Source: an uncultured virus (IMG/VR IMGVR_UViG_3300042367_000583)
Taxonomy: Duplodnaviria > Heunggongvirae > Uroviricota > Caudoviricetes
Virus record (IMG/VR): IMGVR_UViG_3300042367_000583
Span: 62,001 to 84,017 of that record
Direction: 5' to 3' (one strand)
Length of the DNA: 22,017 nucleotides
Positions within the stretch are counted from its first letter, which is position 1. Each line of letters opens with the position of its first letter. The notes beneath the pieces are model-generated. The model had not been told where the DNA came from. It saw only the letters and a program-made list of their open reading frames with translations, and searched no databases. The translations under genes and the position numbers were made by a program. Positions 1-22,017 of the stretch are shown here, one piece after another.

Positions 1-308
1 AAAAGATTAGGTATTGCTACACCTGTTAAAATCGAAAAGATAAACTGGAATATAGCAGTTTTAAAACGCCAAAAACATCCTACTTTCCTGTCTGAATCAG
101 CGTCAATAAATGCACTGCTTAAAAGACATTCTATATCATTGTCATCTGCTTTGATTACGCTTTCATAAACTCCTTCTAGTATTTTCGATGCAAAGGGTTT
201 TTTTGATGTTTTAGTATTTTTAACTAAGCAATCGACATATTGCTTGACTTCTGTTGGCAACTCAGCGTAGCTTAAGTTGATTAGTACTCGATAGGTCAGG
301 CTTTTCAT
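1..308 (-). CDS. Hypothetical protein, 3'-partial (runs off left edge); paralog of 313..714
   Basis: Not in ORF track. ATG at 308 behind AGGAG RBS; open to edge: MKSLTYRVLINLSYAELPTEVKQYVDCLVK...FIFSILTGVAIPNL. Confidence 0.75.
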   Translation of the reverse strand, partial: MKSLTYRVLINLSYAELPTEVKQYVDCLVKNTKTSKKPFASKILEGVYESVIKADDNDIECLLSSAFIDADSDRKVGCFWRFKTAIFQFIFSILTGVAIPNL

Positions 309-3466: not shown

Positions 3467-5728
3467 TTAGACGATCGTTGCTAGTGATTCTTTAAAAGGC
3501 ACTGGATAGCTTGAATTTTGAAAAACCCGTACTGTGTAAGCCGATTGGATTGATCCCCAATCGGCTATCTGTTGCGATTCTGTGTAAACGACGCTTCGGG
3601 CTGACGATACTGACCATTCTCGTTTTACTGTGGACTCGTCGTAAATTCTGACTACATAGCTGTTCAATTCTCCTGCTGCGTAAGCAATATCGATATAGTC
3701 GATCCAACGACCATTTAACCGCGTCCGTCGATACCAAGTAATAATTAAATCGTTGTTATCTTTTTCCCCTCTTACAGCACAAGGGAAAGGCTTTAATCCT
3801 TCTAAAGTAATTGTGTGAGCAGTCTCGTCTTCTATATCAGTTTCAAGTAGTCCATTAGGGACTACTTTTAATAAATATTCTCGATTAATATCAGAAAGAT
3901 TTAAAGGGAGTCGAACTAAATAATTAGTTAGTAGCACAAATTTTTCCCCTATTATATGCTTAGAGATAGCTGGTTCAGTTCCTTTGACTCCACGAATTGT
4001 ATATGAAATATCAAAAATTAAAGGATTGCTAGACACAATAGCAGCATTTTTAAAAGCTATAATTTCTCCAGTAGAAAACCAACCTAATTGTTTGCCCGAT
4101 AGAAATGTTTCAAGAGTAACTGGCTCTAATTGCCCTGAATTCATACTTATTCGTATCCAATTTGAATCGTCAATAAAACTAGGAGAGGCGTTGTTAAAAT
4201 TTGGGGAAAAGCTCAATACAGTACCAGTTACGCTGTTGACAACATTGCCAACAGCAAAATCATAGCTTAATCCGTTGTCATCAGAATAAAATAATGCTCC
4301 TTTCCTAAAACTAGAGTTACCTTCAATTGCCACATAAATTCCTATGTCTGTATCTCGGCTATTAACTATTGGGACTTCAATAGGAATAGCGTTAGCGCGT
4401 CCGTAGGGACGAGGAGTGTTATTGTCTGGCGGAAATTCGTTATCTATAGGAATATCTGGTAAATATCCTACTCCTTGAAATCGAGTAGCTTCAATTTCAA
4501 TTAAATAATTTACGCCTCTTACTTTTTTGGTGATTTGCATCAATTCCTGATGATAATTGTTATTATCATTAGTAAAAATTACATCCCCAACTTTCAGATT
4601 TTCCCATGCTGGCAATAAAAGCATTTTTGAAAAAGTTTTTGATTGCGTTTTCCCTAAAAAAAGAATTTTTGAGGCAATATTCATGAAAAACATATCTATA
4701 TCTATTAGTTTAGTTTGAAAGCTAAGCTCGTTTGTGTGAGTATCTGATGGGTCTTTAGCTACTACGGTAATAGTTTCATAATTTTTTAAAACATTTAGCC
4801 CAGATACTGTAACGGCACTAGGAGTTTCTCTAAAATGAGTCAGTTTTTTTTCATTAAGGTCAATAGGATTTTCTCCAAATTTTTTAGACCCAAAAGAGCT
4901 TTTAGGGATAAAAATAGGATCAGATGATTGTTCTTGTCTTTTAAAAATGATTTTATCTTTTGGCTCCCTTGCTACAATAAAAAAAGCTCTCATAAGTTCT
5001 TCTAACTGATCAGCAAAAGATGTCCCATCAAACAATAAATCAAATCCTTGAATTCGGTAATCATTAGGAATGTCAGTCACATCAATTTGATCGTCTGTTC
5101 TACCAGCTAATTTACAAATAGTTTTCAAAATATCTTTTATTTTTGGATTGTCTCCACTTTCTCCAATCACCTCAACATCAATAGCAGGAAATCCAGTGCC
5201 GTCATAATTAGCAATCGGATAATTATTAAAAAGTAAAAAAGACATTCCAGTAAAAGCAGGTACTGGGTTGGATTCTTTCGATTGAATAACAGAAGATGGC
5301 GTAGTTTGATTGCCAGTATAAATAGTTGTATGTTCAATAAATTTTAGGCTTTTTTCGTCGTTAGTTTCAGAATTGTAAACAAGGATGCTGTTCATCCAAA
5401 CTCGCCTAACAGAGCCAATTTTTCTGGCAATTGGATAAGCGGCTGTCAGAAAATAAGTGTAAACTTCGGTAGTTTGCCCACCACCACCACCTTTTCCGCC
5501 TTGTCTTTCGGAAGTGACGACTTCCTTAAGAGGAAGCCCCCACATCATAGTTAGCCCTTCTTTTCTCACCTTCCCAAAAGGATAGGATAGGCTTTTGCCG
5601 TATTCAGCATCGGGAACACCAGTATCCTCAATTCTTCCTTTTTGTTGAACAGGAGGTTTAGGAGCAAATAGAGATAATAATAGGTTAGCTCCGACTCCTA
5701 TTGCTATGGGAATGAGAAAATTAGCCAC
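3467..5728 (-). CDS. Phage tail tip/host-specificity protein (gpJ / GTA megatron-like, Phage-tail_3)
   Basis: 753 aa; YG..L.Y.FG.VR, GGKGGGG, I..VRRVW.N, PAF.G, GEIIAF, RGVKGT, W.RRTR motifs. Confidence 0.85.
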   Translation of the reverse strand: MANFLIPIAIGVGANLLLSLFAPKPPVQQKGRIEDTGVPDAEYGKSLSYPFGKVRKEGLTMMWGLPLKEVVTSERQGGKGGGGGQTTEVYTYFLTAAYPIARKIGSVRRVWMNSILVYNSETNDEKSLKFIEHTTIYTGNQTTPSSVIQSKESNPVPAFTGMSFLLFNNYPIANYDGTGFPAIDVEVIGESGDNPKIKDILKTICKLAGRTDDQIDVTDIPNDYRIQGFDLLFDGTSFADQLEELMRAFFIVAREPKDKIIFKRQEQSSDPIFIPKSSFGSKKFGENPIDLNEKKLTHFRETPSAVTVSGLNVLKNYETITVVAKDPSDTHTNELSFQTKLIDIDMFFMNIASKILFLGKTQSKTFSKMLLLPAWENLKVGDVIFTNDNNNYHQELMQITKKVRGVNYLIEIEATRFQGVGYLPDIPIDNEFPPDNNTPRPYGRANAIPIEVPIVNSRDTDIGIYVAIEGNSSFRKGALFYSDDNGLSYDFAVGNVVNSVTGTVLSFSPNFNNASPSFIDDSNWIRISMNSGQLEPVTLETFLSGKQLGWFSTGEIIAFKNAAIVSSNPLIFDISYTIRGVKGTEPAISKHIIGEKFVLLTNYLVRLPLNLSDINREYLLKVVPNGLLETDIEDETAHTITLEGLKPFPCAVRGEKDNNDLIITWYRRTRLNGRWIDYIDIAYAAGELNSYVVRIYDESTVKREWSVSSARSVVYTESQQIADWGSIQSAYTVRVFQNSSYPVPFKESLATIV

Positions 5729-9011: not shown

Positions 9012-9280
9012 CCATCTTCCTTTAGCCCTTGATGTAAAAGGGTTTCGGGTAAGGATTGCGCCCCATTCGCTAAAATTTAGTTTTCAAGGTTCTGCTTGGT
9101 TCAAAAAATCAGGCTAGTAAATCCCAGATCGTAAGCTGGTCGGGGTTTCTGGGGATTGCGCCCCGTGATTTTTTGGAACTTCGCTTAGATGCCTTATTAG
9201 GTAAGGCTTTCGGGTTATTTATGCCGTGGCTATCCTCGCACGGCTGAGGTGGGGCGGAAGAAAAAATAAGGGATTGCGAG
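9012..9280 (-). promoter_or_regulatory. CRISPR leader, overlapping the last ~57 codons of the Cas gene
   Basis: GGATTGCGCCCC at 9053 and 9153 (100 bp apart), GGATTGCG at 9271; repeated CCCGAAA-[C/G]CCTT-N7-AAGG motifs (minus); CTCGCA/TGCGAG inverted pair at 9235/9275. Confidence 0.6.
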
Positions 9281-10992
9281 TCATTCTCGGACTGAGTGAG
9301 GGTGCGATTCCCTTCCTGCTTCATCTGCTTACTAATCGAGTGTTCGGCATTCTCTATCGGCGCGTCCCCAATAGACTCTTGATTTGCATCAAGATCAGGC
9401 GTGAATTCCCTCGCTAAACCGAGGTATTTTCCAATCATAGAGACAGGAAACTTGATTAAAGAGGCGATCGCTCTTAAAAACTCATCTCGTAAGCCACGAA
9501 TCAGAATATTTGCGGCGGCATTCTGATCGGCGTGAGCTTCGTAACCACAGCTAACACATTTAAACTTCGATTGACTAACGCGGTTAGCTTTATCAATATT
9601 ACCACAATTGAAGCAAGTTTGTGAAGTATGTTTAGGATTAACTCGGATCACTTTTCTGCCACGTTCGTTAGCTTTATTTTCAATAAATGTGCGAAGTTGT
9701 CCAATAGCATTATCAAGTAATGCCTTATTTAATCCAGACTTTCTTTTTTTGCCATTTTGTTTATAACCATCGCCGTCTTCTCTTTCTTTAGGTTTTGCGG
9801 CGGCTGTCATGTTTTTTAGTTTTAAATCTTCTAAAATAACTGATTGATATTCGCTAGTTATTTTATGGGCTAATTGAGCATTTCTCCCTTTTCGCTGACG
9901 AGCAATTTTCTCGTGAACACGAGCGAGTTTAGCGTAGGTTTTACGCTGATTATTAGAGTTATCTTTTTGTCTAGAAGCTTGACGCTGTAATCGGTTAAGT
10001 CGCTTTTTCTGAATTTTTGCGTAGCGTTTAGCTTCCGATTGTCTCCCTAAGTCATCGGTAAATATTGCCACAGCACCCATATCTAAACCAACACATTTAT
10101 CGGATTCTTTATAGATCGTGTCGTCAGTTTCGATGGTTAGCTGTAAGTAATATCCCGTCGCTTTACGAGTAATTTTAGCCATTCGGGGAGCTTTCCCTTG
10201 CAATCGATCAATCCCCCGTACTTTTAGTAATCCTATCTTTGAGGAAACGATAACTCCATTAGATTCAATCTTTATAGTTTCAGGTTGACCGTTAACAAGA
10301 GTCTCTACCTTATCCCGTCTTCCTTTAAACTTAGGAATCCCACGGATACCTTTTTTAGCGGCATCATAAGCAGGTTTAATCACACTTCTAAAAAAGCCTT
10401 TTTTAAACTCTGTTTCAATTTCACCGATAAATTTTGCTGTATCTCCTCGAAAGTAAAAAGCAAGTTTCTCCCTGTTGAGATAATTAACAGCATCCTCGCC
10501 AATATTTTCGGCATTCATGAAACGACGGATAGGAATAGCATCTAAGGGAGTATATTCTTTTCCGTTGCTTGTCTTTTTAAAATAGGCGATTTTACAGCAA
10601 GGATTGCTGATTAAAAGTTCTTTCTCTTTATCTTTAAGGGTTTTAAACTCTTTTTCGTCGTAATCCCCAGAATAACTTAACTTCCATATTTCAGGGCTAA
10701 ACTCATCGAATTTATGTTTTTTGCGATAATATCTTTGTGTTGACTCCTCTTTGAGTGCGATTGAAAGATTCCATAGCAACTTACACGCCGCTAAAGAACG
10801 ATCAATCTCTGTGATTTGTTCTTTAGTAGGATGTATCTTAAATTCCAAGACTTCCATAGGAGATTTTTCTTCTTTTTTCTTAGGAGTCTTTTTGACAATA
10901 CTAAACCTTAGATGATTATCTTTAGAACTAGGTGTTTCTTGAATTTGGTACTCATCTACTTTAAGTTTGACTTTACTTTTTTTGGCTTTCAT
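9109..10992 (-). CDS. TnpB-derived type V effector (C2c8 / V-U2-like) RNA-guided nuclease
   Basis: IS605-OrfB HTH (FKIHPTKEQ...CKLLWN), RuvC-I VGLDMG, RuvC-II ILEDL, Zn ribbon CFNC/CVSC, RuvC-III ADQNAAANI; 627 aa; abuts the array; no tnpA. Confidence 0.85.
   Translation of the reverse strand: MKAKKSKVKLKVDEYQIQETPSSKDNHLRFSIVKKTPKKKEEKSPMEVLEFKIHPTKEQITEIDRSLAACKLLWNLSIALKEESTQRYYRKKHKFDEFSPEIWKLSYSGDYDEKEFKTLKDKEKELLISNPCCKIAYFKKTSNGKEYTPLDAIPIRRFMNAENIGEDAVNYLNREKLAFYFRGDTAKFIGEIETEFKKGFFRSVIKPAYDAAKKGIRGIPKFKGRRDKVETLVNGQPETIKIESNGVIVSSKIGLLKVRGIDRLQGKAPRMAKITRKATGYYLQLTIETDDTIYKESDKCVGLDMGAVAIFTDDLGRQSEAKRYAKIQKKRLNRLQRQASRQKDNSNNQRKTYAKLARVHEKIARQRKGRNAQLAHKITSEYQSVILEDLKLKNMTAAAKPKEREDGDGYKQNGKKRKSGLNKALLDNAIGQLRTFIENKANERGRKVIRVNPKHTSQTCFNCGNIDKANRVSQSKFKCVSCGYEAHADQNAAANILIRGLRDEFLRAIASLIKFPVSMIGKYLGLAREFTPDLDANQESIGDAPIENAEHSISKQMKQEGNRTLTQSENDSQSLIFSSAPPQPCEDSHGINNPKALPNKASKRSSKKSRGAIPRNPDQLTIWDLLA
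9260..9430 (-). ncRNA. Candidate omegaRNA-derived tracrRNA scaffold inside the Cas gene 3' end
   Basis: IS605-like motifs TACCTCGG..GGGAATTCACGCCTG (9426-9396) and GATGAAGCAGGAA (9325-9313), then anti-repeat-like CAATCCCTTAT followed by a T-run. Confidence 0.4.
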
Positions 10993-11701: not shown

Positions 11702-12448
11702 TTATTCTCCGATTAATAGCTGACGGTTTCTAGCCTTAGAAAAAAGCTGCTTAACTTCCTTGAGGTTTTCGGTGGGGACATAGGATGCTTGATTAACTCG
11801 CAACCCCTGACACACTAAATGAGAGTGTCCATTCTTCTCCAACCAACGCTCTAACTCTCTTCCAGACTTGAATCCTAGTTCTTTCCCTAGATCGGCAGTG
11901 GAACGACCCTCAAAACTCACGTTTCGTCCGTTTCTACAGATAATTGTCTCAGTGACTTTTTCAACCTTCTCGATCACAATATCTGGACGGCCATCTAACA
12001 AGGCTAAAACCTCAGCACCATGTATTAATCGAATTGCGTCACGCCGATCCATATAATAGGTTTTGGCTTTTGTCAGTTCTAACTCAAGTTCTAATTCTCG
12101 AATACGTCCACTTTGAGCGGGGATTACTTCTTTGATAAGTTGCTTTGCTTGACTAAATGCCTTGACTAAGTTGCGCTTACAAGCAATGACCTGCGAAGTA
12201 TTTCGAGACAGTGTCATCAAAAAAGTTGCTTGCTCTTCATTCAGGTAGCAGTAACGCTCAGGACGACCGCCGCTAGAGCCTTCTAGGGGTTTCGACATTT
12301 GAAATGCGACAACTCCAAACTCTTGAATCTCGTCAATGTATTTTTCTATGGTTTGACGCAAGGCGCGGTGTTCAATCCCCAACTCATCAGCAATCAAACG
12401 AGAATCAACGACAAGACAATCATTCTGTGATACTATTTCAATAGCCAT
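11702..12448 (-). CDS. Rha-family phage regulatory protein / antirepressor
   Basis: VVDSRLIA.ELGIEH...GGRP..YCYLNEEQATFLMTLSRN...K.NLVKAF; AGGAGG RBS. Confidence 0.85.
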   Translation of the reverse strand: MAIEIVSQNDCLVVDSRLIADELGIEHRALRQTIEKYIDEIQEFGVVAFQMSKPLEGSSGGRPERYCYLNEEQATFLMTLSRNTSQVIACKRNLVKAFSQAKQLIKEVIPAQSGRIRELELELELTKAKTYYMDRRDAIRLIHGAEVLALLDGRPDIVIEKVEKVTETIICRNGRNVSFEGRSTADLGKELGFKSGRELERWLEKNGHSHLVCQGLRVNQASYVPTENLKEVKQLFSKARNRQLLIGE

Positions 12449-13035: not shown

Positions 13036-13470
13036 CTATGATTTTACCACTCCCGAAACAGGTACTCGATAAACCAGTACAGGCGGGTATTCATGAATAT
13101 AGGTCTTAATCACGCCATTTATTGAGTCAGCATGAATATACTCCCCATCTCCTAAATAGATGCCTACATGACCATTTATACCTGATTTACGGAAGACTAA
13201 AATATCTCCTTTATCTGGACTACCTTCTACTCTTGTCAAGATACCCTCAATAAATCTCACTAAGAAATTGTTCCGGGGAATCCGTTCGTAGTTTTCAATG
13301 ATGAAATCGTAAGGTAAAAACCCGACTTTAATCCCCACGCCAGCAATAAATCCTACACAATCGGTTCCAATCCCTTTAAGCGATTGTCCATGAAACCAAG
13401 GAGTACCGAGCCATTCAAGAGCTTCAGCAACGATTTGATTATCCAAAGAATCGTTTTTTAGTTCGTTCAT
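13036..13470 (-). CDS. NlpC/P60 tail-associated peptidase (gpK-like)
   Basis: WLGTPW.H.....G.GTDCVGF, GDILVF, GHVGIY.G.GEYIHA. Confidence 0.92.
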   Translation of the reverse strand: MNELKNDSLDNQIVAEALEWLGTPWFHGQSLKGIGTDCVGFIAGVGIKVGFLPYDFIIENYERIPRNNFLVRFIEGILTRVEGSPDKGDILVFRKSGINGHVGIYLGDGEYIHADSINGVIKTYIHEYPPVLVYRVPVSGVVKS

Positions 13471-16400
13471 TTTGTGTATTTTCCCGTTCTTTCAATTGAT
13501 TTAAACTATACCCCATGTCATTCCGTGATTCTACAGTCACGTTATTGGTGTTATTAATTACCAAAGACTGATTAGAGCTATTAGTATTTGAAGTTGTGGA
13601 GTAATTAGGTTTACCCCCGACAAATCCCCCATTAGCATAGTTCTTAATAGGAGCATTATTTCTGTACTCTAGATATGCTTCTGTTTCTTTAGGGGTAAGA
13701 ACCAATTCGCCTTCATTAGCTACGATCAAGCGAGGTTTTCGGCCTCCCGACATTGCTCGTTCACGCTGAAAAGCTGAAATGATATTTTTCTCTATCGGAG
13801 CATTGGCATCTCCAACTTTCCCGCCATCACTAAATAAGCTGAATCCTGTACCTAGAGAAAAGGCAGAAGCCGGAGCAGAAGCAAAGCTAGAGGCTCCTAT
13901 ACTACCAAGTGACCCAATCGAACCAAGTCCGCCTAGTCCCCCACTAAAAATCCCTGTTATTCCACTAAGTAGCCCGTTAAATAAGCCACCGCCGCCACCG
14001 CCACCAAAAATAGAAGAAAAGATGTTACCTACTGGTTTGAAGATACTGTTTAGAGCATTAGTGAAAAAGTTGCCTACTGGCCCGATGATTGCATTAAATA
14101 CTGACTCAAATGCCTGAGTTATTGGTTTAGTAAAACCATCGATAGCAGAAGTTAAAGCATCGATAGCAGGCTTAGTAATACCCTCGACAAATTTTGTCAT
14201 GATATTTAATCCAAGACTACTAAAAGCCGATCCTATTCCTTTTCCTTCTCTAATGTCAGAGAAAAAGCTTTCAGCTGCGCCACGATTCGGAGAGGCATCT
14301 AATGCTACTCGCTCTAATCTTAATTCTGCAAGTTTTTCCCATTCCGAGCGGATATTAGCCACATATTCAGCGTATTGTGGTAAGTCTTTGTAAGGTTCTA
14401 AATAATCCTCTAATTCCTCTTTTTCTTTTTGTAGGCTAATACGTTCGGCAAGGATAGCAGAATCATCAAATAAAGTCGGTCGAGACTGAAATTCTAGTTG
14501 CGTTCTTTGGATAGTTAAATCATTTAACCGATCACGGATACTCCTGACTGTATCTCTGGTTTTTCTAAATGATGCTTCTAAGGTAGCTACTCCCTGATTT
14601 TTGCCTAATTGTTCAATCGCTTGATCAAGAATTGCTACCTGTTCTTTAGCTAATTCAGCGTTTTTAGCTAAAACCTCGATACTATCTGTTATCTCTTTGA
14701 CAAATTCAGGGGGAAGAGCTATACCTTTTTCTTGAAATTCTCCTAAGATTTCTTTTATTGCGTCGCTGTATTTTTGTTGAGCGTCAGCATTTAAAAGTAA
14801 AGTCCGTCGCTGGTCTTCTAGTGATTCAATCTGAGAGCGATATTGTCGAGAGACTTCCGTGGCACTCTTGTTAATTTCTTCTTGTACTGTCAGATACCCT
14901 TTAGAGTTGATGGTCAAATCAGCGACATTTTCGGAAGCATCTCTTAAAGTACGTTCTAATGCACGGGCATCTTCCTCTTGCTGCCGTCTAAATTTTATTG
15001 ATCTGTCAAGAGCATTGTTTAGATTTTGTTGCTCTTCTAGCCGTCTTGAAAACTCCTCAGCGTTTTGGTTGGCTGTTTCAGCGTTGCGAATTTGATCAGC
15101 CGCTGCGCCAAGATTACCCGTAGGAAGATTGGGAACGGGAGGCAAATCAGGACCCTGGAAGTTAATCGGATTGTCTTTAAGAACCGGTGGTAAATCGGCA
15201 TCCCAGAAATTATCTTGATTTTGATTAGGTAGAGTCGGTAATTGGGCTATAGGTGGAGGACTACTAAATTCTGGACCGCCTTTTCCTTCTTTTGTTTCTT
15301 CTTTTGTTAAAACACGGGCAGGAGAAGGGTTAGAGGTGGAGTCTTTAATGGATTGGCTAATTGCATTAGTAGCATTAGTTATTATTTTTCGATTATTTAG
15401 TTGATTGCCGTTAATATTTGCATAAGCAGTTACAATATATTCTTTCCCATTAATGTTTACCAGTCCAACGTTACCAATAACTTTAGAGTTATTTCCAATT
15501 TTTCCGCCGATTTCATTATTATACTTAAAATTTCTTGTTTGTCTCAGAGATTGTTCAGCTAATTGACTTGCAGGATTTTGATTTTTAATTAAAGACTGCA
15601 TAGCTAACGTTACGTCTTGTGCTGTTGAAATGTTTGGAGTTCCACTGCCTGGTATATTTAAATACCTAGAAATAGTAGTGTTTTTATAACCTTCTTTTCT
15701 GGCTAATTCTGTAGCTTTGGTTAGCCCACCTAGCCGATCAATTAAAACATTAGTTGCCGTATTATCTGACTTTTCTAGCATTAGCTGTACTAGCTGTTCA
15801 ACTGTTTTAACTTGATTGGCTTTTAATTGTCCGTGTGGATCAACCAAAGGCAATTTTATGGCGATAGCGTCTTTTAAGGAAAGTTTTCCGCTTGTTATTT
15901 CTTTGGCAATCAAATCAGCAATAATAACTTTAATTGTACTAGCTGGTGACGCTGGGGGTGTTTGAGCGTTTTTAGAATATACAGTTTTTCCGCCAACTTC
16001 TTGAACTAAAACAGATTGAATATTTTTTGGTAATCTGTTGGTGATTTGTTGCTGAACTGATGGAGAAGGGTTAGGGGTGGAAGTTGATGGAGTGGGTAAA
16101 CCGCCTTGATTTCTTCTGATTTGTCGAATACGGTTTGATGCTCCGCTGTTAGCAGGATTGCCGTCATATCGCAGTGCGTCCAATTCGGATTGAGTACGGG
16201 GAGCATTGAGTTGATATTTTCGTAAAAACTGCTCGTAAACCTTTAACAGGTCTTCCATCCGCTTCATGCCTTGCCCGGGGTAATTAGCCCCTGGAAAAGA
16301 TGCCCATTCTTTGCGGGTTGCGTTAATTACCCCACGAATATCTCCTTTAAAAAGCTCGTCTAATCCACCTCTAAATAAAATACGGCTTAATGCGACTAAA

Positions 16401-19400
16401 TCTTGAGAGGCAGGAGAAAAATCTTTTAATCCTAATTTCGCTTTTTCTTCATCCCATGTAAAATCCATAATCTGGTATCTTCCAGATGCCGATGAAGTGG
16501 TCGATCCAAACGGGATTCTTTGTCGTGGATGGTCTGCAAAAGAACTAAATTGTCCATGTCCAAAAAGAGTGTTATATCCCTTATTTGGCATATTGAAAGT
16601 ACCTTCTGCGTAAGCAATAATATCAAGAAAGGCTTTGACGCGAGGATTGTTTAAATGCTGAGATAATTCTTGACCGCGTGGTGTTAACCCCTTGGGAATT
16701 GAAGACGACTGCGGCGGCGGTAAAAACCCTCCCCCATTCCACACAGGAGCAGGGGTGAAATTACTAGGTGCTGGTAGTATCAAACCTTCCTTAGCTTTTC
16801 TAATTGCCTCAGCAGTTTCCTCTATACTTTTTACTAAGTCTTCTCCAGAAGTCTTGATATTTGGGGGAATAGCTATTAACTCAGAATTGATTAATTTAAT
16901 CGGTTCTGGAAGTGTATTAAGATTTGTGACAATATCCTTGATTGATTGGGGAATAAAGCCTAATTCTTTATTGGTTTGTCGGATTAAATCAGCTAGAGTA
17001 CGATTGAGGTCTTCCTGAGTCCGTTTAATATCCTCAATCGTTCTTAGTCTATTTCTTTCAGCGTCTTGCTGTTGCTCTTGTAGATTACGGATATTTCTTA
17101 GGGTAGAGATATAGGAAGTTTCTATCTCCTCGGTTCGGGATTGGAAGGTGCGTCCGCGACTGGCAAGGTCAGCTTGGCCCTGTACAAATTCTAGGAAAAT
17201 GTCCCCTAGTTCTTTACCAGCGTCGCTTGTACCGGGTATTAATAAACGGTTTTTAACTTGCTGTACCCTGATTCTATCAGTCGTATCCAGTAACTGATTT
17301 TGGGCATTTAAGAGGTTCTTATCGAGTTCCCTGACTAAATCAATGTAACTTTCAGATAGGGAACGATTTTCTCTAAAAGCTGACAGTTGAGCATCTTCAA
17401 TCTGTCTTCTATAATCTTCAATCTGACGATTAAAGTCGATTATCTGACGGTCAAGGTTGCGGTAATAGTCTTGTATTTGTTCTTGCTGATCTCTTAAAGA
17501 TAGTTCGGTTTCAGCTATTTGCTGTGTGATATTTGCAATAGCTGTTTTTACTGCTAAAGGATCATCTACGTTTAATACTAATTTTTCTTGCTCTAAGGCT
17601 AATTGATTATAAAGAGCCGCTAAGTTTATCTTGGTTTGTTCCAGTCCGTAGCTAATATTTTGACTGGAGGAGGTTTTATTAGCTAGATTAGTGAGTTGTT
17701 CTGCTTTAACAATTTCTCCACTAGCTTGTTTTTCTTGTATTTGTCTTTTCTTTCTTTCGACAATAATCTCTCGACTAATTTGCTGAATTTCTCTCTCAGC
17801 GTTTAAAATATCTCGTCGAGCGGTTGCGTATTCTTTAGCCTGATTTAAAATATTTCTTAAAGCGGCGTTATCTTTTAGGTCAGATTCGTACTGATCCATT
17901 ATTTGCTGAATAGCATCAGGAGAGAGTAAATTTTCAGCAATTGCTTCACCAAAGCTCGCTACATTTAGCTGTTTTAAGTCTTCTTTAAAGTAAGTGCTTA
18001 AAACTTTATTGGCAGATTTAGATAGCCTTTCGTTTAAAGTATTAGAGATAGAGTTAGCTGAATTTTCTAAAGTGGCGATACGCTCTTTAGCAGTCTGTAA
18101 GCTTTCTTCTTGAACTTTAACATTAAACTGAAATTCATTAATTTTCCCTGATGCAAATTGTTGATTTAATCCAATTGAACGACTTAAACTATTTCCTTCA
18201 TTGGCAAAATTAGCATTAGCTCTTGTTCTTATAGCAAGATCAAAGGCAACTTGTAATTTTCTATATTCTTTTTCTTGGTCTTTCAAGACTTGTAGATAAT
18301 CTTGTTCCGCTTTTTTTAAGTAACCAATTATAGTCACGAGGTCTTTTTTACGTTGTATGTAAGCAATGTCAGTTATATCTCTATTCTTAAAGCTTTGCTC
18401 TAACGATGCTAACGCTATCTCATATTGCTGAAGGTCGGCAGTAATTCTTGACCCAACGGGACCTAACTGTTTATTAATTAGCTCCTGTTCTCGCTTCATT
18501 AAATTCTGCTCTTGCTGGTTAAATTCAGATACAGATCGGTCGTTTCCTTCTGTGCTTGCAATTGTTCTTTCTGCTCTAACTAAAGCTAAATTATTTCTGA
18601 TTTCTTGTAATTCAGATGAAAATTGTTTGCTACCTGAAAAATTAGATAAAGTGTCTTGATATTCTTTGAGATTTCCGACTCCAGTAGCCAGAGATTTATC
18701 AATGTTTTCTAGTCCTTGTCGTAATTCTAATAGTGACATAAGCCATTTAGAATTATAAACAAGCCCTAGTGTTAGAACATTAAAAAACTTTTCTCCTCCA
18801 GACAATTCCATATCAGGCAAAAAGCTTGTTAAGCCTTTGCGATTACTGTTATCGGTTTTGTTTTGCCAAACATCAAGAGCTTTTTTAGACTCTTCTAGGG
18901 TTCTTACAGCTTGTTTTAGTTCTTCGCTACCAGCATTTAATGCGTTATAAACAAATTGAATACCAGTTATCACCGCAGTAGGGATAGCCAATGCTTTAAT
19001 TAATCCTATTCCTGCTAAAGTAGCAAGGTTTATAGATACTTTTAATTTACCCATGGCTGTAGCTGTAGATAGAGATGCTACTCCGGCAACTTGTAAGGAT
19101 GCACTCATAGCAGCGCTGGCAACGGCTCCTAACCGACCCGCTGCCGCAAATTGCATGACTGATTTTCCTAAGAATCCCATGACTGACAGTAACCCTGCGG
19201 CTCCCACTGATGCCACAGTCCCTAGATTGTCATTCAAGGTACTCAAGACGGCATTTAATGCCTGTAAAGCAGGGTAAGCGGCTACTCCAATTTTTTCCCC
19301 TAACTGCATTTGAAGCTGTTCGGTATTGTTCTGGAATCGAGAGATTTCCGATTGTAAAGTTTCGGTAGAAAGAGAAAGACCTCCGGCACTCATCCGTTTA

Positions 19401-22017
19401 TATTCAGCCGCTAACCGAGGTAAAACATCTTGTACTAAGAGATTGCCTGCTGATGCTTGTTGATAAAATTGAGCAGTGGTCAGCCCTATTGATCGGGCGG
19501 CTACATTTAAAGCGTCGTTTAACCCTCCTGACTCGCTCAATTGCTGTGTGAATTCTTCAACGGAAACAACAGCTTTAGAGGCTATTTGCCCGATAGCTCT
19601 AAAAGATTCAGCTTGTTGTTGGGCATTGGTTTGTCGCGCTGCTAATGCCTCTTGGAATCCTTCAAAAATATTATCTGCCTGCGCTTGTAGTGGAGAATCA
19701 GTAGTAATTAATTTGAATCTGCTATAAGCAATAGCGGATTCTTTAAAGGATATTCCTAATTTGTCAGCCCTTGCCACTAAAGCGTCAAGAGATTGTTCTA
19801 CGTTGCCTACACCGGCAAGATTTAAATTTAATTTAATTCTTTGTAGCTCAGTAAAAGCAAGTAAAGAATCAGTAACAGCTTGTTGAATCCTAAAAGGAAT
19901 ATCGTCAATAGCAAAAAGTAGAGGTCGCAATAAAAATTCTGCTCCTTTGAAAAGAGCAAATCCCCCAATTGCCGCCATAGCACCTTTACGAAGATTGATC
20001 ATACCTCCTGTAGCGGCATTAAGTTCTTGGTCGAGAGTTCTGAGTGCTTTGCCACCAACCGAGAGGAAATTAATAAATCCGTCCGCTTGGGCAATAGCAG
20101 CTTTTAGTCCGCTCACAATGCCGTCTGTAAAGCCATTAGAAACGCCCGCTTTTTCAATACTATCGAGAGCGTTAAAAATGTTGTCTCGTTTTTTATTCCA
20201 GTCGTCAAGAATTTCTTCTCTTGTTGTTTTTGGACGAGCGATGACGGTAGCTCGCTTCATCACTTGAAAAGCGCGGGGAGAAGCGAAAATTCCCGTGTTC
20301 ATCGAGCCTTGAATCTCGTTGATAACCGCTAGGCGTTCCCCTCGGTCTAGTCCCATTTCTTTAACAGCTTGAAGAATCGCTTTTCGGGCTTCTTTTGACC
20401 TCGTCCCGACAAAAAAAGTAAAATCGCTTACCTCTTTATCGAATTGAGTCTCTAGCCTTAATCCGAAGCGAATATGACGCGCCCCTAACGCTAATCCTTC
20501 ATAAAAAAACCGCATTGCTTTCATCGCTTTTTTAGATGGCGAAGCATTCCCCAATCCCTTATTTGTTGCATCAACTATTTCAATTGCAGTTTGATAGGCT
20601 ATTCTTTTGGCATCGTCGCTGTTTACTCCTATTTCTAAACCTTTCTCAAAATTATTGGCTCCTGCTTTACCAGCAACAAACATTAGTTCTGACATATCAG
20701 CGCCGATTGATTTAACAATTGTTCGCAATTTTGACTGTTCGTCAAGGAGTAATGCGCTTAACTCAAAAAATACATCTTTTTTCTGTTTGCCGCTAATTAT
20801 AGATTCCCAAGCTTTATACAACCTTTCAAATTCTGCAATGTTTTGCTTAAGGCTCCCTGGTATTATTCTTTCTTGTGCCATTTTGTCATTGCCAAGCATT
20901 TTATCAAAATCACTAGCATCAGGTTTGTTTACTAGAATAGTGTCATGCAATTCTACTCCTTTCTGCGAAGCTAGTTCTATTACATCATTTTCAAAAGGTT
21001 TGGCGGTATGGCGATTATCTCCCCCTTGATTACTCCACCCAAAAGCTCCTGCTCCCGTTAAAAGAAAATCGTCCCACAATTGTCCTTCTACACCATAAGT
21101 GAACTTATCTTTCGGTCGTTCACCTATTTTATGTTTTTTGAAAAATTCTGGAATATTTACATCTTTTAAATATTCGCGAGTTTCATGATAGCGGCCTTGC
21201 CCACCTCCACGGTATTCCCCAGTTTTGTCATAGTGGCTGTATTCACTTGCACCACGTCCAAAGGAAGCTAGGCTGTCACCAGGATGGAGAAACATTTTAT
21301 CGGGATTAAATAACCCTTCTAAAGCTACTGGCTCAAAACCTCCGTAATTATAGACCGCCAATCCTGTTTCTGGTTGTGTTCGTGGAAAAGCGTTTCCTTT
21401 CCAGACACCGTCTCCAATGAATTTATTAGATGCGTTTTGATGCCACAACCCGTAAATAGGATTGACATTGCTAGAAATATCATCAGGTCGCATCTGAGAT
21501 TCAAATTCTTGCCTTAATCCTCTGTCTTTATTGCTATTAGGATGTAAAGCTTGATAACCATCTTCTAAAATACTTTCTAGATGTTCTCTTTTGGCATAAA
21601 TTAAAAATTTTGCGTCTTGTTTTTGATTAAGTTGCAATCGTTCATTTACGTCTTGAAGAAACTTATCAAAAAATTGTACATACAATTTTGCTTGTTCTTT
21701 TGTTCCTATTTCAAGCCCTCTTATCAAATTTCTACCCGCTTCTTTACCTTTCCAAGATGGTGAAGCATTCCCCAGTCCTTTATTTGTTGCGTCGATAATT
21801 CCAATTGCAACATCTAAAGCGTATTTTTCGCTATTATTATTTTGTAATCCAATATTTAACCCCTTAATATAATTTAACCCAGACTGTTTGCCATCACTGG
21901 AAAACATCGAACTAATCGCTTCAAGGTTTTTTGCGAATACTGGAACGCCAGCACTTAAAGAAGATGCAATAACTTCAATGAGTTTGCGTCCGTAAATATT
22001 GTACTTTTCTTCTATAT
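13439..22017 (-). CDS. Tape measure protein (>2850 aa, 5'-partial) with lysozyme and beta-lactamase-fold domains
   Basis: Frame open from 21907 to the right edge; tape-measure motif (QIASK..VS.EE..QQLSE), coiled coils, GLGNASPS repeats, C-terminal A.GG.VG and NEGELVL motifs. Confidence 0.92.
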   Translation of the reverse strand, partial: IEEKYNIYGRKLIEVIASSLSAGVPVFAKNLEAISSMFSSDGKQSGLNYIKGLNIGLQNNNSEKYALDVAIGIIDATNKGLGNASPSWKGKEAGRNLIRGLEIGTKEQAKLYVQFFDKFLQDVNERLQLNQKQDAKFLIYAKREHLESILEDGYQALHPNSNKDRGLRQEFESQMRPDDISSNVNPIYGLWHQNASNKFIGDGVWKGNAFPRTQPETGLAVYNYGGFEPVALEGLFNPDKMFLHPGDSLASFGRGASEYSHYDKTGEYRGGGQGRYHETREYLKDVNIPEFFKKHKIGERPKDKFTYGVEGQLWDDFLLTGAGAFGWSNQGGDNRHTAKPFENDVIELASQKGVELHDTILVNKPDASDFDKMLGNDKMAQERIIPGSLKQNIAEFERLYKAWESIISGKQKKDVFFELSALLLDEQSKLRTIVKSIGADMSELMFVAGKAGANNFEKGLEIGVNSDDAKRIAYQTAIEIVDATNKGLGNASPSKKAMKAMRFFYEGLALGARHIRFGLRLETQFDKEVSDFTFFVGTRSKEARKAILQAVKEMGLDRGERLAVINEIQGSMNTGIFASPRAFQVMKRATVIARPKTTREEILDDWNKKRDNIFNALDSIEKAGVSNGFTDGIVSGLKAAIAQADGFINFLSVGGKALRTLDQELNAATGGMINLRKGAMAAIGGFALFKGAEFLLRPLLFAIDDIPFRIQQAVTDSLLAFTELQRIKLNLNLAGVGNVEQSLDALVARADKLGISFKESAIAYSRFKLITTDSPLQAQADNIFEGFQEALAARQTNAQQQAESFRAIGQIASKAVVSVEEFTQQLSESGGLNDALNVAARSIGLTTAQFYQQASAGNLLVQDVLPRLAAEYKRMSAGGLSLSTETLQSEISRFQNNTEQLQMQLGEKIGVAAYPALQALNAVLSTLNDNLGTVASVGAAGLLSVMGFLGKSVMQFAAAGRLGAVASAAMSASLQVAGVASLSTATAMGKLKVSINLATLAGIGLIKALAIPTAVITGIQFVYNALNAGSEELKQAVRTLEESKKALDVWQNKTDNSNRKGLTSFLPDMELSGGEKFFNVLTLGLVYNSKWLMSLLELRQGLENIDKSLATGVGNLKEYQDTLSNFSGSKQFSSELQEIRNNLALVRAERTIASTEGNDRSVSEFNQQEQNLMKREQELINKQLGPVGSRITADLQQYEIALASLEQSFKNRDITDIAYIQRKKDLVTIIGYLKKAEQDYLQVLKDQEKEYRKLQVAFDLAIRTRANANFANEGNSLSRSIGLNQQFASGKINEFQFNVKVQEESLQTAKERIATLENSANSISNTLNERLSKSANKVLSTYFKEDLKQLNVASFGEAIAENLLSPDAIQQIMDQYESDLKDNAALRNILNQAKEYATARRDILNAEREIQQISREIIVERKKRQIQEKQASGEIVKAEQLTNLANKTSSSQNISYGLEQTKINLAALYNQLALEQEKLVLNVDDPLAVKTAIANITQQIAETELSLRDQQEQIQDYYRNLDRQIIDFNRQIEDYRRQIEDAQLSAFRENRSLSESYIDLVRELDKNLLNAQNQLLDTTDRIRVQQVKNRLLIPGTSDAGKELGDIFLEFVQGQADLASRGRTFQSRTEEIETSYISTLRNIRNLQEQQQDAERNRLRTIEDIKRTQEDLNRTLADLIRQTNKELGFIPQSIKDIVTNLNTLPEPIKLINSELIAIPPNIKTSGEDLVKSIEETAEAIRKAKEGLILPAPSNFTPAPVWNGGGFLPPPQSSSIPKGLTPRGQELSQHLNNPRVKAFLDIIAYAEGTFNMPNKGYNTLFGHGQFSSFADHPRQRIPFGSTTSSASGRYQIMDFTWDEEKAKLGLKDFSPASQDLVALSRILFRGGLDELFKGDIRGVINATRKEWASFPGANYPGQGMKRMEDLLKVYEQFLRKYQLNAPRTQSELDALRYDGNPANSGASNRIRQIRRNQGGLPTPSTSTPNPSPSVQQQITNRLPKNIQSVLVQEVGGKTVYSKNAQTPPASPASTIKVIIADLIAKEITSGKLSLKDAIAIKLPLVDPHGQLKANQVKTVEQLVQLMLEKSDNTATNVLIDRLGGLTKATELARKEGYKNTTISRYLNIPGSGTPNISTAQDVTLAMQSLIKNQNPASQLAEQSLRQTRNFKYNNEIGGKIGNNSKVIGNVGLVNINGKEYIVTAYANINGNQLNNRKIITNATNAISQSIKDSTSNPSPARVLTKEETKEGKGGPEFSSPPPIAQLPTLPNQNQDNFWDADLPPVLKDNPINFQGPDLPPVPNLPTGNLGAAADQIRNAETANQNAEEFSRRLEEQQNLNNALDRSIKFRRQQEEDARALERTLRDASENVADLTINSKGYLTVQEEINKSATEVSRQYRSQIESLEDQRRTLLLNADAQQKYSDAIKEILGEFQEKGIALPPEFVKEITDSIEVLAKNAELAKEQVAILDQAIEQLGKNQGVATLEASFRKTRDTVRSIRDRLNDLTIQRTQLEFQSRPTLFDDSAILAERISLQKEKEELEDYLEPYKDLPQYAEYVANIRSEWEKLAELRLERVALDASPNRGAAESFFSDIREGKGIGSAFSSLGLNIMTKFVEGITKPAIDALTSAIDGFTKPITQAFESVFNAIIGPVGNFFTNALNSIFKPVGNIFSSIFGGGGGGGLFNGLLSGITGIFSGGLGGLGSIGSLGSIGASSFASAPASAFSLGTGFSLFSDGGKVGDANAPIEKNIISAFQRERAMSGGRKPRLIVANEGELVLTPKETEAYLEYRNNAPIKNYANGGFVGGKPNYSTTSNTNSSNQSLVINNTNNVTVESRNDMGYSLNQLKERENTQNERTKKRFFG

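Follow-up and report, generated by a model that had tools for sequence, protein, structure and literature searches.

A probable divergent DUF3626/SopF-type domain lies between repeats in the giant tape measure protein of an uncultured phage

The final 22 kb of the linear, 84,017-bp contig of an uncultured virus (IMG/VR record IMGVR_UViG_3300042367_000583; CheckV completeness estimate, 92%), a stretch of 22,017 nucleotides that is here called the window, encodes on its minus strand the C-terminal part of a giant phage tail tape measure protein (TMP), in which a motif-bearing insert is flanked on both sides by a short repeat. As far as sequence comparison can tell, this insert is probably a folded cargo domain in a giant multi-enzyme siphophage TMP, belonging to DUF3626 as a very divergent member or derived from that family as an offshoot, and resembling ADP-ribosyltransferases (ARTs) of the SopF type. 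An earlier note, written from the letters of the window, had suggested a DUF3626-type domain, and this reading is supported by the collinearity of the insert with a widened DUF3626 profile, which exceeds that of the controls, by the preservation of the residues with which SopF contacts nicotinamide adenine dinucleotide (NAD+), and by the neighbors of the insert in a protein language-model atlas. For the insert, we infer an ART fold, catalysis, a target, and a route into the cell.

Translation of the minus-strand open reading frame (ORF) confirmed the positions of the two DATNKGLGNASPS repeats that had been seen on either side of the insert, and the repeat also exists in the DNA, as 62 nt with 82% identity at a spacing of 1221 nt. 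The motifs LESILEDG, R..FE, PIYG, YG, GDSL, and VEGQLW follow one another in this frame in the order in which they had been described (Table 1). Among six insert sequences (alignment A3), the rows of which are 38 to 95% identical to the window, P57 I58 Y59 G60, Y95 G96, G117 D118 S119 L120, and E181 G182 (alignment numbering) are invariant, and by this measure the insert motifs exceed chance.

The insert is very rare and confined to four giant-TMP lineages. A phmmer search of 1.84 billion representatives returned three matches at an E value of ≤0.001, i.e., the giant TMP P0002 (4425 aa; 94% identical; insert at P0002 residues 1685-1965), the TMP P0003 (3257 aa; 41% identity over 132 aa), and P0004, a 579-aa repeat protein (E = 1.7e-6) that was set aside as unrelated because its match consists of four short stretches of a unit that it repeats. 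A region search among proteins of 1571 to 5002 aa recovered the insert in 3 of 525 candidates, namely, P0002 and the TMPs P0005 (4754 aa) and P0006 (3969 aa; insert 49% identical). Seven loci in IMG/VR carry the insert, all of them belonging to these same lineages, and a second scan with other motifs led to the same seven. No stand-alone or mid-size relatives of the insert were found among proteins of 101 to 426 aa or 427 to 2000 aa, and the insert was absent from all 142 candidate stretches in species genomes, all 431 in metagenome contigs, and three bacterial genomes bearing the TnpB gene of the phage; GenBank phages, in a set that may exclude records near the window's own genome, gave no match either. 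SPS-type repeats bracket the insert in every lineage.

DUF3626 proteins were found in 6 of 401 cyanobacterial genomes, and the consensus of the five that were aligned (A4) holds RPKYGAL, Y.DS, and YIEAQIHG; the DUF3626 signature that the earlier note had given (PxYG...GDS...YxEAQ) is therefore right. From 37 viral DUF3626-like loci in IMG/VR, 12 distinct ORF regions were taken, and all 11 viral ORFs scanned score above the Pfam DUF3626 cut-off. Loci L061, L064, L065, and L068 read RPIYGY...YGNITIKL...RTTYVFGDSL...YIEAQIHG, which is much nearer to the insert than the cyanobacterial consensus. In hhalign comparisons of A3 with 17 DUF3626 sequences (A6), a score of 22.5 was obtained over 184 collinear columns (P = 0.018; probability, 2.6%); when these 17 were realigned with L-INS-i, the score was 32.4 (P = 3.8e-4; probability, 36%; P = 8.7e-5 in global mode), and a template to which a DUF3626-like module of P0005 (see below) had been added gave 32.9 (probability, 40%), so that the scores span 22.5 to 32.9 (P = 0.018 to 3e-4) over this range of templates across 184 to 192 collinear columns.

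These scores stand out from several controls. With both templates, all 150 column shuffles fell short of the score obtained (mean, 13.1; standard deviation, 2.3; maximum, 21.2), and reversal of the query lowered it to 14.4 and 13.6. In a decoy test with 24 segments of 250 columns along an alignment of five TMPs, the three segments that cover the insert reached 29.6, 28.8, and 24.9, the next one 18.4, and the remaining 20 between 9.9 and 14.1; the N-terminal half of the insert matched profile positions 1-79 and its C-terminal half positions 114-220, i.e., in the correct order. Single sequences scanned in sliding windows (P0005, P0006, P0003, and the phage's own N-terminal 1701 aa) attained a score of 20 nowhere but in the inserts and in the P0005 module between repeats 1 and 2 (module 1); the insert of P0006 alone stayed under 20 in this test, and that of P0003 alone reached 34.4 (P = 1.5e-4) with the DUF3626 profile. 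A reciprocal hidden Markov model (HMM) built from the insert found DUF3626 ORFs in 10 of its 16 best non-self matches, compared with 45 among the 379 non-self ORFs of the database, an enrichment that is only supportive because those DUF3626 ORFs are interrelated.

According to passages of the respective papers, DUF3626 spans residues 178-338 of the Salmonella effector SopF (PMC6682159), an NAD+-dependent mono-ADP-ribosyltransferase whose triad is "I-Y-E", whose structures have been solved (7DN8 and 7DN9; PMC10333799), and which is the sole DUF3626 member with a characterized activity (PMC6682159, PMC10333799). The exchanges E325A (N-ribose contact), Y224A, and Y240A (both nicotinamide contacts) largely abolish ADP-ribosylation by SopF, and the primers place Y224, Y240, and E325 in the stretches P-I-Y-A-A-L, A-Y-G-K-S-F-F, and Y-I-E-A-H-I-H-G, as given in part of a further paper (PMC11937434). 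The DUF3626 profile aligns those stretches of SopF (7dn8_C; E = 1.4e-11). In the insert, Y188 of PIYG is aligned with SopF Y224, Y224 of NYGG with SopF Y240, and E310 of VEGQLW with SopF E325, the Glu that is invariant in YIEAQIHG; each of the three is invariant in A3. Equivalents of the three NAD+-contact residues of SopF are, on this alignment, retained in the insert. Moreover, R168 and E172 of the insert correspond to the family-invariant R49 and E53 (A6 numbering), A181 is replaced by Gly, and Y178 is kept only in P0003 (A6 numbering as well).

The neighborhood of the insert also holds a domain of this kind. In P0005, GLGNASPS occurs three times (residues 1650, 2015, and 2422), and the module between repeats 1 and 2 matches the DUF3626 alignment with a probability of 93.4% (E = 2.4e-7; 88.8% in another comparison); compared directly, this module and the insert show no significant similarity, and they are linked only via DUF3626. 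The ORF of the window starts with IEEKYNIYGRK..., which is the end of the repeat 1-2 module of P0005, and the N-terminal piece of the TMP ends with ...SLGDIEK, the start of the same module, so that the contig is broken within a P0005-type module. This N-terminal piece of 1701 aa is encoded on the minus strand at the opposite contig end (contig positions 5104-2; L009:2-5104), the counterpart of residues 1-1669 of P0002 is encoded there (minus strand, contig positions 5104-98), and the contig is therefore permuted, with its break inside the TMP gene. Translation of the minus strand (13439-22015) showed no stop in the TMP frame up to the window end, and the two pieces sum to at least 4559 aa. The picture drawn in the earlier note needs one correction: because the contig end truncates the ORF, the insert is not close to the N terminus of the protein but sits approximately 1700 to 2100 residues into the whole TMP, the full-length relatives of which comprise 3257 to 4754 aa. 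The leftover bases at the contig ends (1 + 2; window 22015-22017) would preserve the frame if the ends were joined directly, and such a joint would leave out about 245 aa of the P0005-type DUF3626-like module.

P0002 lacks the repeat 1-2 module and has instead a single hybrid repeat, the left half coming from repeat 1 and the right half from repeat 2, which is what would result from recombination between the repeats. The slots vary in number, and judging from their sequences, both are occupied by the same kind of domain. The idea of a swappable domain, for which relatives were to be checked for other domains between the repeats, thus stands in part: gain or loss of a DUF3626-like module is seen, the neighboring module being present in P0005 and cleanly absent from P0002, but no unrelated domain was seen in a repeat-flanked slot among the relatives.

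Several results weigh against a DUF3626-type ART. The insert has no match in Pfam, PHROG, NCBIfam, or PDB sequences; the insert of three lineages is unmatched by the Pfam DUF3626 model (PF12294; cut-off, 27 bits) at an E value of ≤10, and this model found no match at the same threshold in the phage's own genome, which is uninformative since the control genomes gave none either. With the five cyanobacterial proteins (A4) as a template, the hhalign probability of A3 was 0.3%, subsets of DUF3626 scored 17.8 to 26.6 (17.8 for the "classical" subset), and the top probabilities are those of 36 to 40%, compared with the 2.6% for A6. With the reciprocal HMM, none of the DUF3626 ORFs was significant by itself (best E = 1.5). 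AlphaFold2 models of the insert were unusable, with predicted local distance difference test values of 32.7 (single sequence) and 35.1 (six-sequence alignment). Several residues that are invariant or almost so in the family are changed in the insert, namely, the KSQFET block, F57, R102, H184 (Trp here), G185 (Asp here), and D192, and no gene for a macro-domain, an ADP-ribosylhydrolase, or NAD salvage was found among the 60 other ORFs of the phage. On the supporting side, the named neighbors of the 49%-identical insert in the language-model atlas include DUF3841 (rank 1), DUF3626 (ranks 2 and 3; score, 0.90), OspC, and DUF2441, the last of which belongs to the ART clan of Pfam according to a passage of PMC7955679; these neighbors are leads only because the scores and the recognition value lie in a weak range. 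DUF3841 was rejected as the family of the insert after a comparison with the one clear member among 301 cyanobacterial genomes, which showed similarity neither to the insert nor to DUF3626 (scores of 14.6 and 13.2).

An insert derived from DUF3626 might be something other than a protein ADP-ribosyltransferase, e.g., an NAD+ glycohydrolase that depletes NAD+, a modifier of nucleic acids or small molecules, or a binding module devoid of activity in which only the shape of the NAD+ pocket is preserved; this alternative is rather unlikely. SopF is the only DUF3626 member of known activity, and family-invariant residues beside the catalytic Glu are altered in the insert (Trp in place of H184, Asp in place of G185, and loss of Y178 in two lineages). 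Selection on the insert was assessed by comparing the window with three relatives that are 93 to 95% identical in protein, a comparison with small counts. The insert shows 13.5 to 17 non-synonymous and 3 to 3.5 synonymous differences, and the ratio of non-synonymous to synonymous substitution rates (dN/dS) is 0.99 to 1.45 (20900-21628) versus 0.13 to 0.24 in the next 628 codons (19000-20899; Fisher's exact test, p = 3e-4 to 1e-3). The dS of the insert is also lower (0.021 to 0.024 versus 0.05 to 0.13 in the adjoining TMP). This pattern is compatible with diversifying surface selection and with relaxed constraint alike; a dN/dS near 1 could mean the latter rather than an arms race, which counts against a SopF-type enzyme and would suit the loosened constraint of a module with another function. 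Against this alternative, the amino acid changes between the window and the close relative L002 spare the invariant motifs in a by-eye comparison, and the three residues that are critical for the activity of SopF are invariant across the insert lineages down to 38% identity.

It is quite unlikely that the insert merely serves the TMP as a globular spacer or in assembly, as an orphan domain without enzymatic function whose likeness to DUF3626 reflects a chance collinearity of short motifs. In favor of this reading, library HMMs and PDB sequences leave the insert unmatched, the AlphaFold2 models are unusable, and the hhalign probability is at most 40%, falling to 0.3% with the narrow template. 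Chance is, however, difficult to reconcile with two halves that each independently match the correct half of the profile and beat both 20 real decoy segments and 150 shuffles, with the same signal from the independent lineage P0003 alone, with a neighboring slot in relatives that is occupied by a DUF3626-like domain at 93% probability, and with language-model neighbors that agree with DUF3626. SGNH hydrolases have their GDS block at the start of the domain and a terminal DxxH block; despite the invariant HPGDSL, an esterase or lipase of this SGNH/GDSL type acting on the host envelope is thus extremely improbable, since Pfam lipase/GDSL models give no match at an E value of ≤10, GDSL lies mid-domain after approximately 115 conserved residues, and a terminal DxxH is not conserved, the ELHD of the window being lost in P0006 and P0003.

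The giant ORF that carries the presumed SopF-type domain is a phage tail TMP, as judged by its TMP_3 match, its hydrophobic segments, and its place upstream of distal tail genes, in agreement with the earlier note, and PHROG tape-measure families match it as well. The TMP contains several unrelated enzymatic domains, i.e., a lysozyme-like domain, a beta-lactamase fold, a weak kinase-like region, and one or two DUF3626-like domains (Table 1). Pfam SLT matches the TMP of the relative P0005. The beta-lactamase-fold domain, with STIKV as its SxxK motif, scores 49 bits with the NCBIfam class A model, far under the cut-off of 200, and for this reason we do not regard it as a resistance enzyme; a domain of the penicillin-binding type directed at peptidoglycan is more likely. 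The kinase-like region lies in the N-terminal part of the TMP (L009:2-5104; residues ~925-1100; motif HNDLAAGN...DLG), and its matches to Bud32, RIO, APH, and Kdo are weak (E = 5e-6 to 1e-2) and all under the cut-offs. In addition, the TMPs of relatives show a weak lipase-like GxSxG region.

Table 1. Features of the window (positions refer to the window; residues refer to the TMP ORF of the window)
Feature	ORF residues	Window positions	Strand	Basis or remark
Insert domain, probable divergent DUF3626/SopF-type ADP-ribosyltransferase-like	136-358	20942..21610	minus	
Upstream flanking repeat, DATNKGLGNASPS	75-87 (21755-21793)	21748..21809	minus	translation and DNA repeat
Downstream flanking repeat, DATNKGLGNASPS	482-494 (20534-20572)	20527..20588	minus	translation and DNA repeat
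LESILEDG	146-153	21557-21580	minus	ORF translation
EFES	170-173		minus	ORF translation
PIYG	186-189	21449-21460	minus	Y188 = 21452..21454
YNYGG	222-226	21338-21352	minus	Y224 = 21344..21346
GDSL	246-249	21269-21280	minus	aligns with D-S of DUF3626 (nearly invariant; S110)
VEGQLW	309-314	21074-21091	minus	E310 = 21086..21088
End of preceding module	1-60	21836..22015	minus	counterpart of the P0005 DUF3626-like module
TMP, C-terminal part (2858 aa)		13439..22015	minus	single open frame, 5'-open at contig end
TMP core, Pfam TMP_3	728-904	19304..19834	minus	E = 2.3e-12; 47.5 bits versus cut-off of 41
Two hydrophobic membrane-type segments	931-950 and 991-1023	18947..19225	minus	Kyte-Doolittle scan
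Lysozyme/transglycosylase-like domain	1772-1959	16139..16702	minus	PHROG endolysin family, E = 4.9e-37
Beta-lactamase-fold (penicillin-binding type) domain	2002-2198	15422..16012	minus	Pfam Beta-lactamase2, E = 2.8e-25
NlpC/P60 tail protein		13036-13470	minus	
Rcc01698-like protein		3467-5728	minus	
TnpB gene		9109-10992	minus	
RecT-like annealing protein		1247-2113	minus	
Rha/anti-repressor-type regulator		11702-12448	minus	

Downstream of the TMP gene, an NlpC/P60 tail protein gene overlaps the TMP stop codon, and a gene for an Rcc01698-like tail protein follows. Together with genes of the DUF2460, BR0599, and phiJL001_Gp84 types elsewhere in the genome, these two constitute a distal tail module like that of gene transfer agents. 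A RecT-like annealing protein and a regulator of the Rha/anti-repressor type flank the tail region. The large terminase gene (L069:11052-13925) contains LAGLIDADG/Hom_end homing-endonuclease domains mid-gene and looks as if it were interrupted by an intein, and the genome encodes two proteins of the formylglycine-generating enzyme family (FGE-sulfatase-like; L069:3771-4370 and L069:17827-18351).

The domain order of the TMP suggests how a SopF-type insert may act. Domains that would need cytoplasmic cofactors are located N-terminal to the hydrophobic segments, and enzymes of the periplasmic type in the C-terminal half. Upon infection, the TMP would be expelled from the tail, its C-terminal lysozyme-like and beta-lactamase-fold domains would degrade the wall in the periplasm, and its hydrophobic segments would insert into the membrane. 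The N-terminal kinase-like region and one or two SopF-like domains, as users of ATP and NAD+, would arrive at the cytoplasmic side just before the DNA, where the insert might bind NAD+ via Y188, Y224, and E310 and ADP-ribosylate a host target, thereby aiding takeover or blocking defense. The flanking repeats would permit gain and loss of modules by recombination.

A more specific version of this scenario can be drawn by analogy with SopF, whose target is the c subunit of the V-ATPase, and as a whole it is improbable. It would have the TMP work as an injection device sorted by compartment, with wall enzymes C-terminal and kinase-like and tandem SopF-like ART domains N-terminal to the membrane segments, and the SopF-like domains would, where the phage enters, ADP-ribosylate a host protein that is embedded in the membrane, candidates being the ATP synthase c-ring or a membrane-bound defense sensor. 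The dN/dS of 1.0 to 1.45 in the insert, compared with 0.13 to 0.24 in its flanks, would then be the trace of an arms race with this target.

With respect to the host, a TnpB gene of the IS605 type (OrfB_IS605; Cas12f1-like TNB) stands among the phage genes; it is 92 to 93% identical to copies in three Microcystis records and 90 to 95% identical to two contigs of a metagenome-assembled genome labeled Crocinitomicaceae. The TnpB gene is a recent mobile insertion and a clue to the host, which by this indirect sequence evidence is likely Microcystis.

The probable SopF-type insert combines features of several known systems. With SopF (PF12294; 7DN8/7DN9), it shares the collinear series P-I-Y-G/A, Y-G, D-S, and Y/x-hydrophobic-E-A/G together with the equivalents of Y224, Y240, and E325, and it would also share delivery to a target cell by an injection device. 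Unlike SopF, the insert fails the Pfam model; lacks KSQFET, R102, H184, and D192; and is embedded in a phage tail protein, whereas SopF is a type III effector. The insert would have a molecule of cyanobacteria as its target, in contrast to the eukaryotic V-ATPase, and it may or may not need an activator such as ARF. Closer in motifs are the viral MuF-DUF3626 fusions (L052, L061, L064, and L065), in which a DUF3626-type domain likewise resides on a virion protein and whose RPIYGY, YGNITIKL, and FGDSL are nearest to the motifs of the insert; they differ in that the carrier is the head protein MuF, that they score above the Pfam cut-off, and that the domain is a single C-terminal copy without flanking repeats. 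Phage_Mu_F also matches 4 of the 11 viral DUF3626 ORFs, two of them above its cut-off. Another combination is seen in PHROG 26588, which joins a ParB-like nuclease to a DUF3626-like end. From such MuF fusions, DUF3626, the family of SopF, appears to be a recurrent virion cargo of uncultured phages.

A wider parallel is provided by the polyvalent proteins of phages and conjugative elements, i.e., giant multi-enzyme polypeptides that are delivered with the DNA and in which, according to passages of the paper describing them, ARTs are the commonest protein-modifying domain, at times in multiple copies (Iyer et al. 2017, PMC5512222). The TMP likewise unites several unrelated enzymatic domains in one giant polypeptide, and delivery by the virion would follow from its identity as a TMP. 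The ARTs of polyvalent proteins differ in being of the H-Y-D type (Tox-ART-HYD2), and the main text of that paper mentions neither tape measure proteins nor DUF3626 (PMC5512222). As described in parts of the literature, T4 Alt and MuF-VIP2 are virion-packaged ARTs that are injected and modify host proteins; unlike the insert, these two are members of the R-S-E clade, and their delivery starts in the head and not within a tail tape measure. TMPs with wall-degrading domains are matched by the lysozyme-like and beta-lactamase-fold domains of the present one, whereas an NAD+-dependent domain would be another class of cargo. To our knowledge, the known enzymatic domains of TMPs act on peptidoglycan, as exemplified by mycobacteriophage TM4 and Pb2 of T5. 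A full-text literature search revealed no phage work on DUF3626 and, in titles and some passages, no report of an ART within a TMP. Injected ARTs and enzyme-bearing TMPs are thus already known, and it is the placement of a probable SopF-type domain within a TMP that is a new combination.

If a SopF-type domain is indeed carried in the TMP, in repeat-flanked cassettes that vary in copy number, the cargo of TMPs would extend past wall-degrading enzymes, and the phage tail may be a vehicle for an enzyme that modifies the host. SopF is known to us only as an effector against animal cells, and an effector family of animal pathogens would thereby be linked to the conflict between phages and bacteria. 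For the phages of bloom-forming Microcystis, the domain would provide a handle on host takeover.

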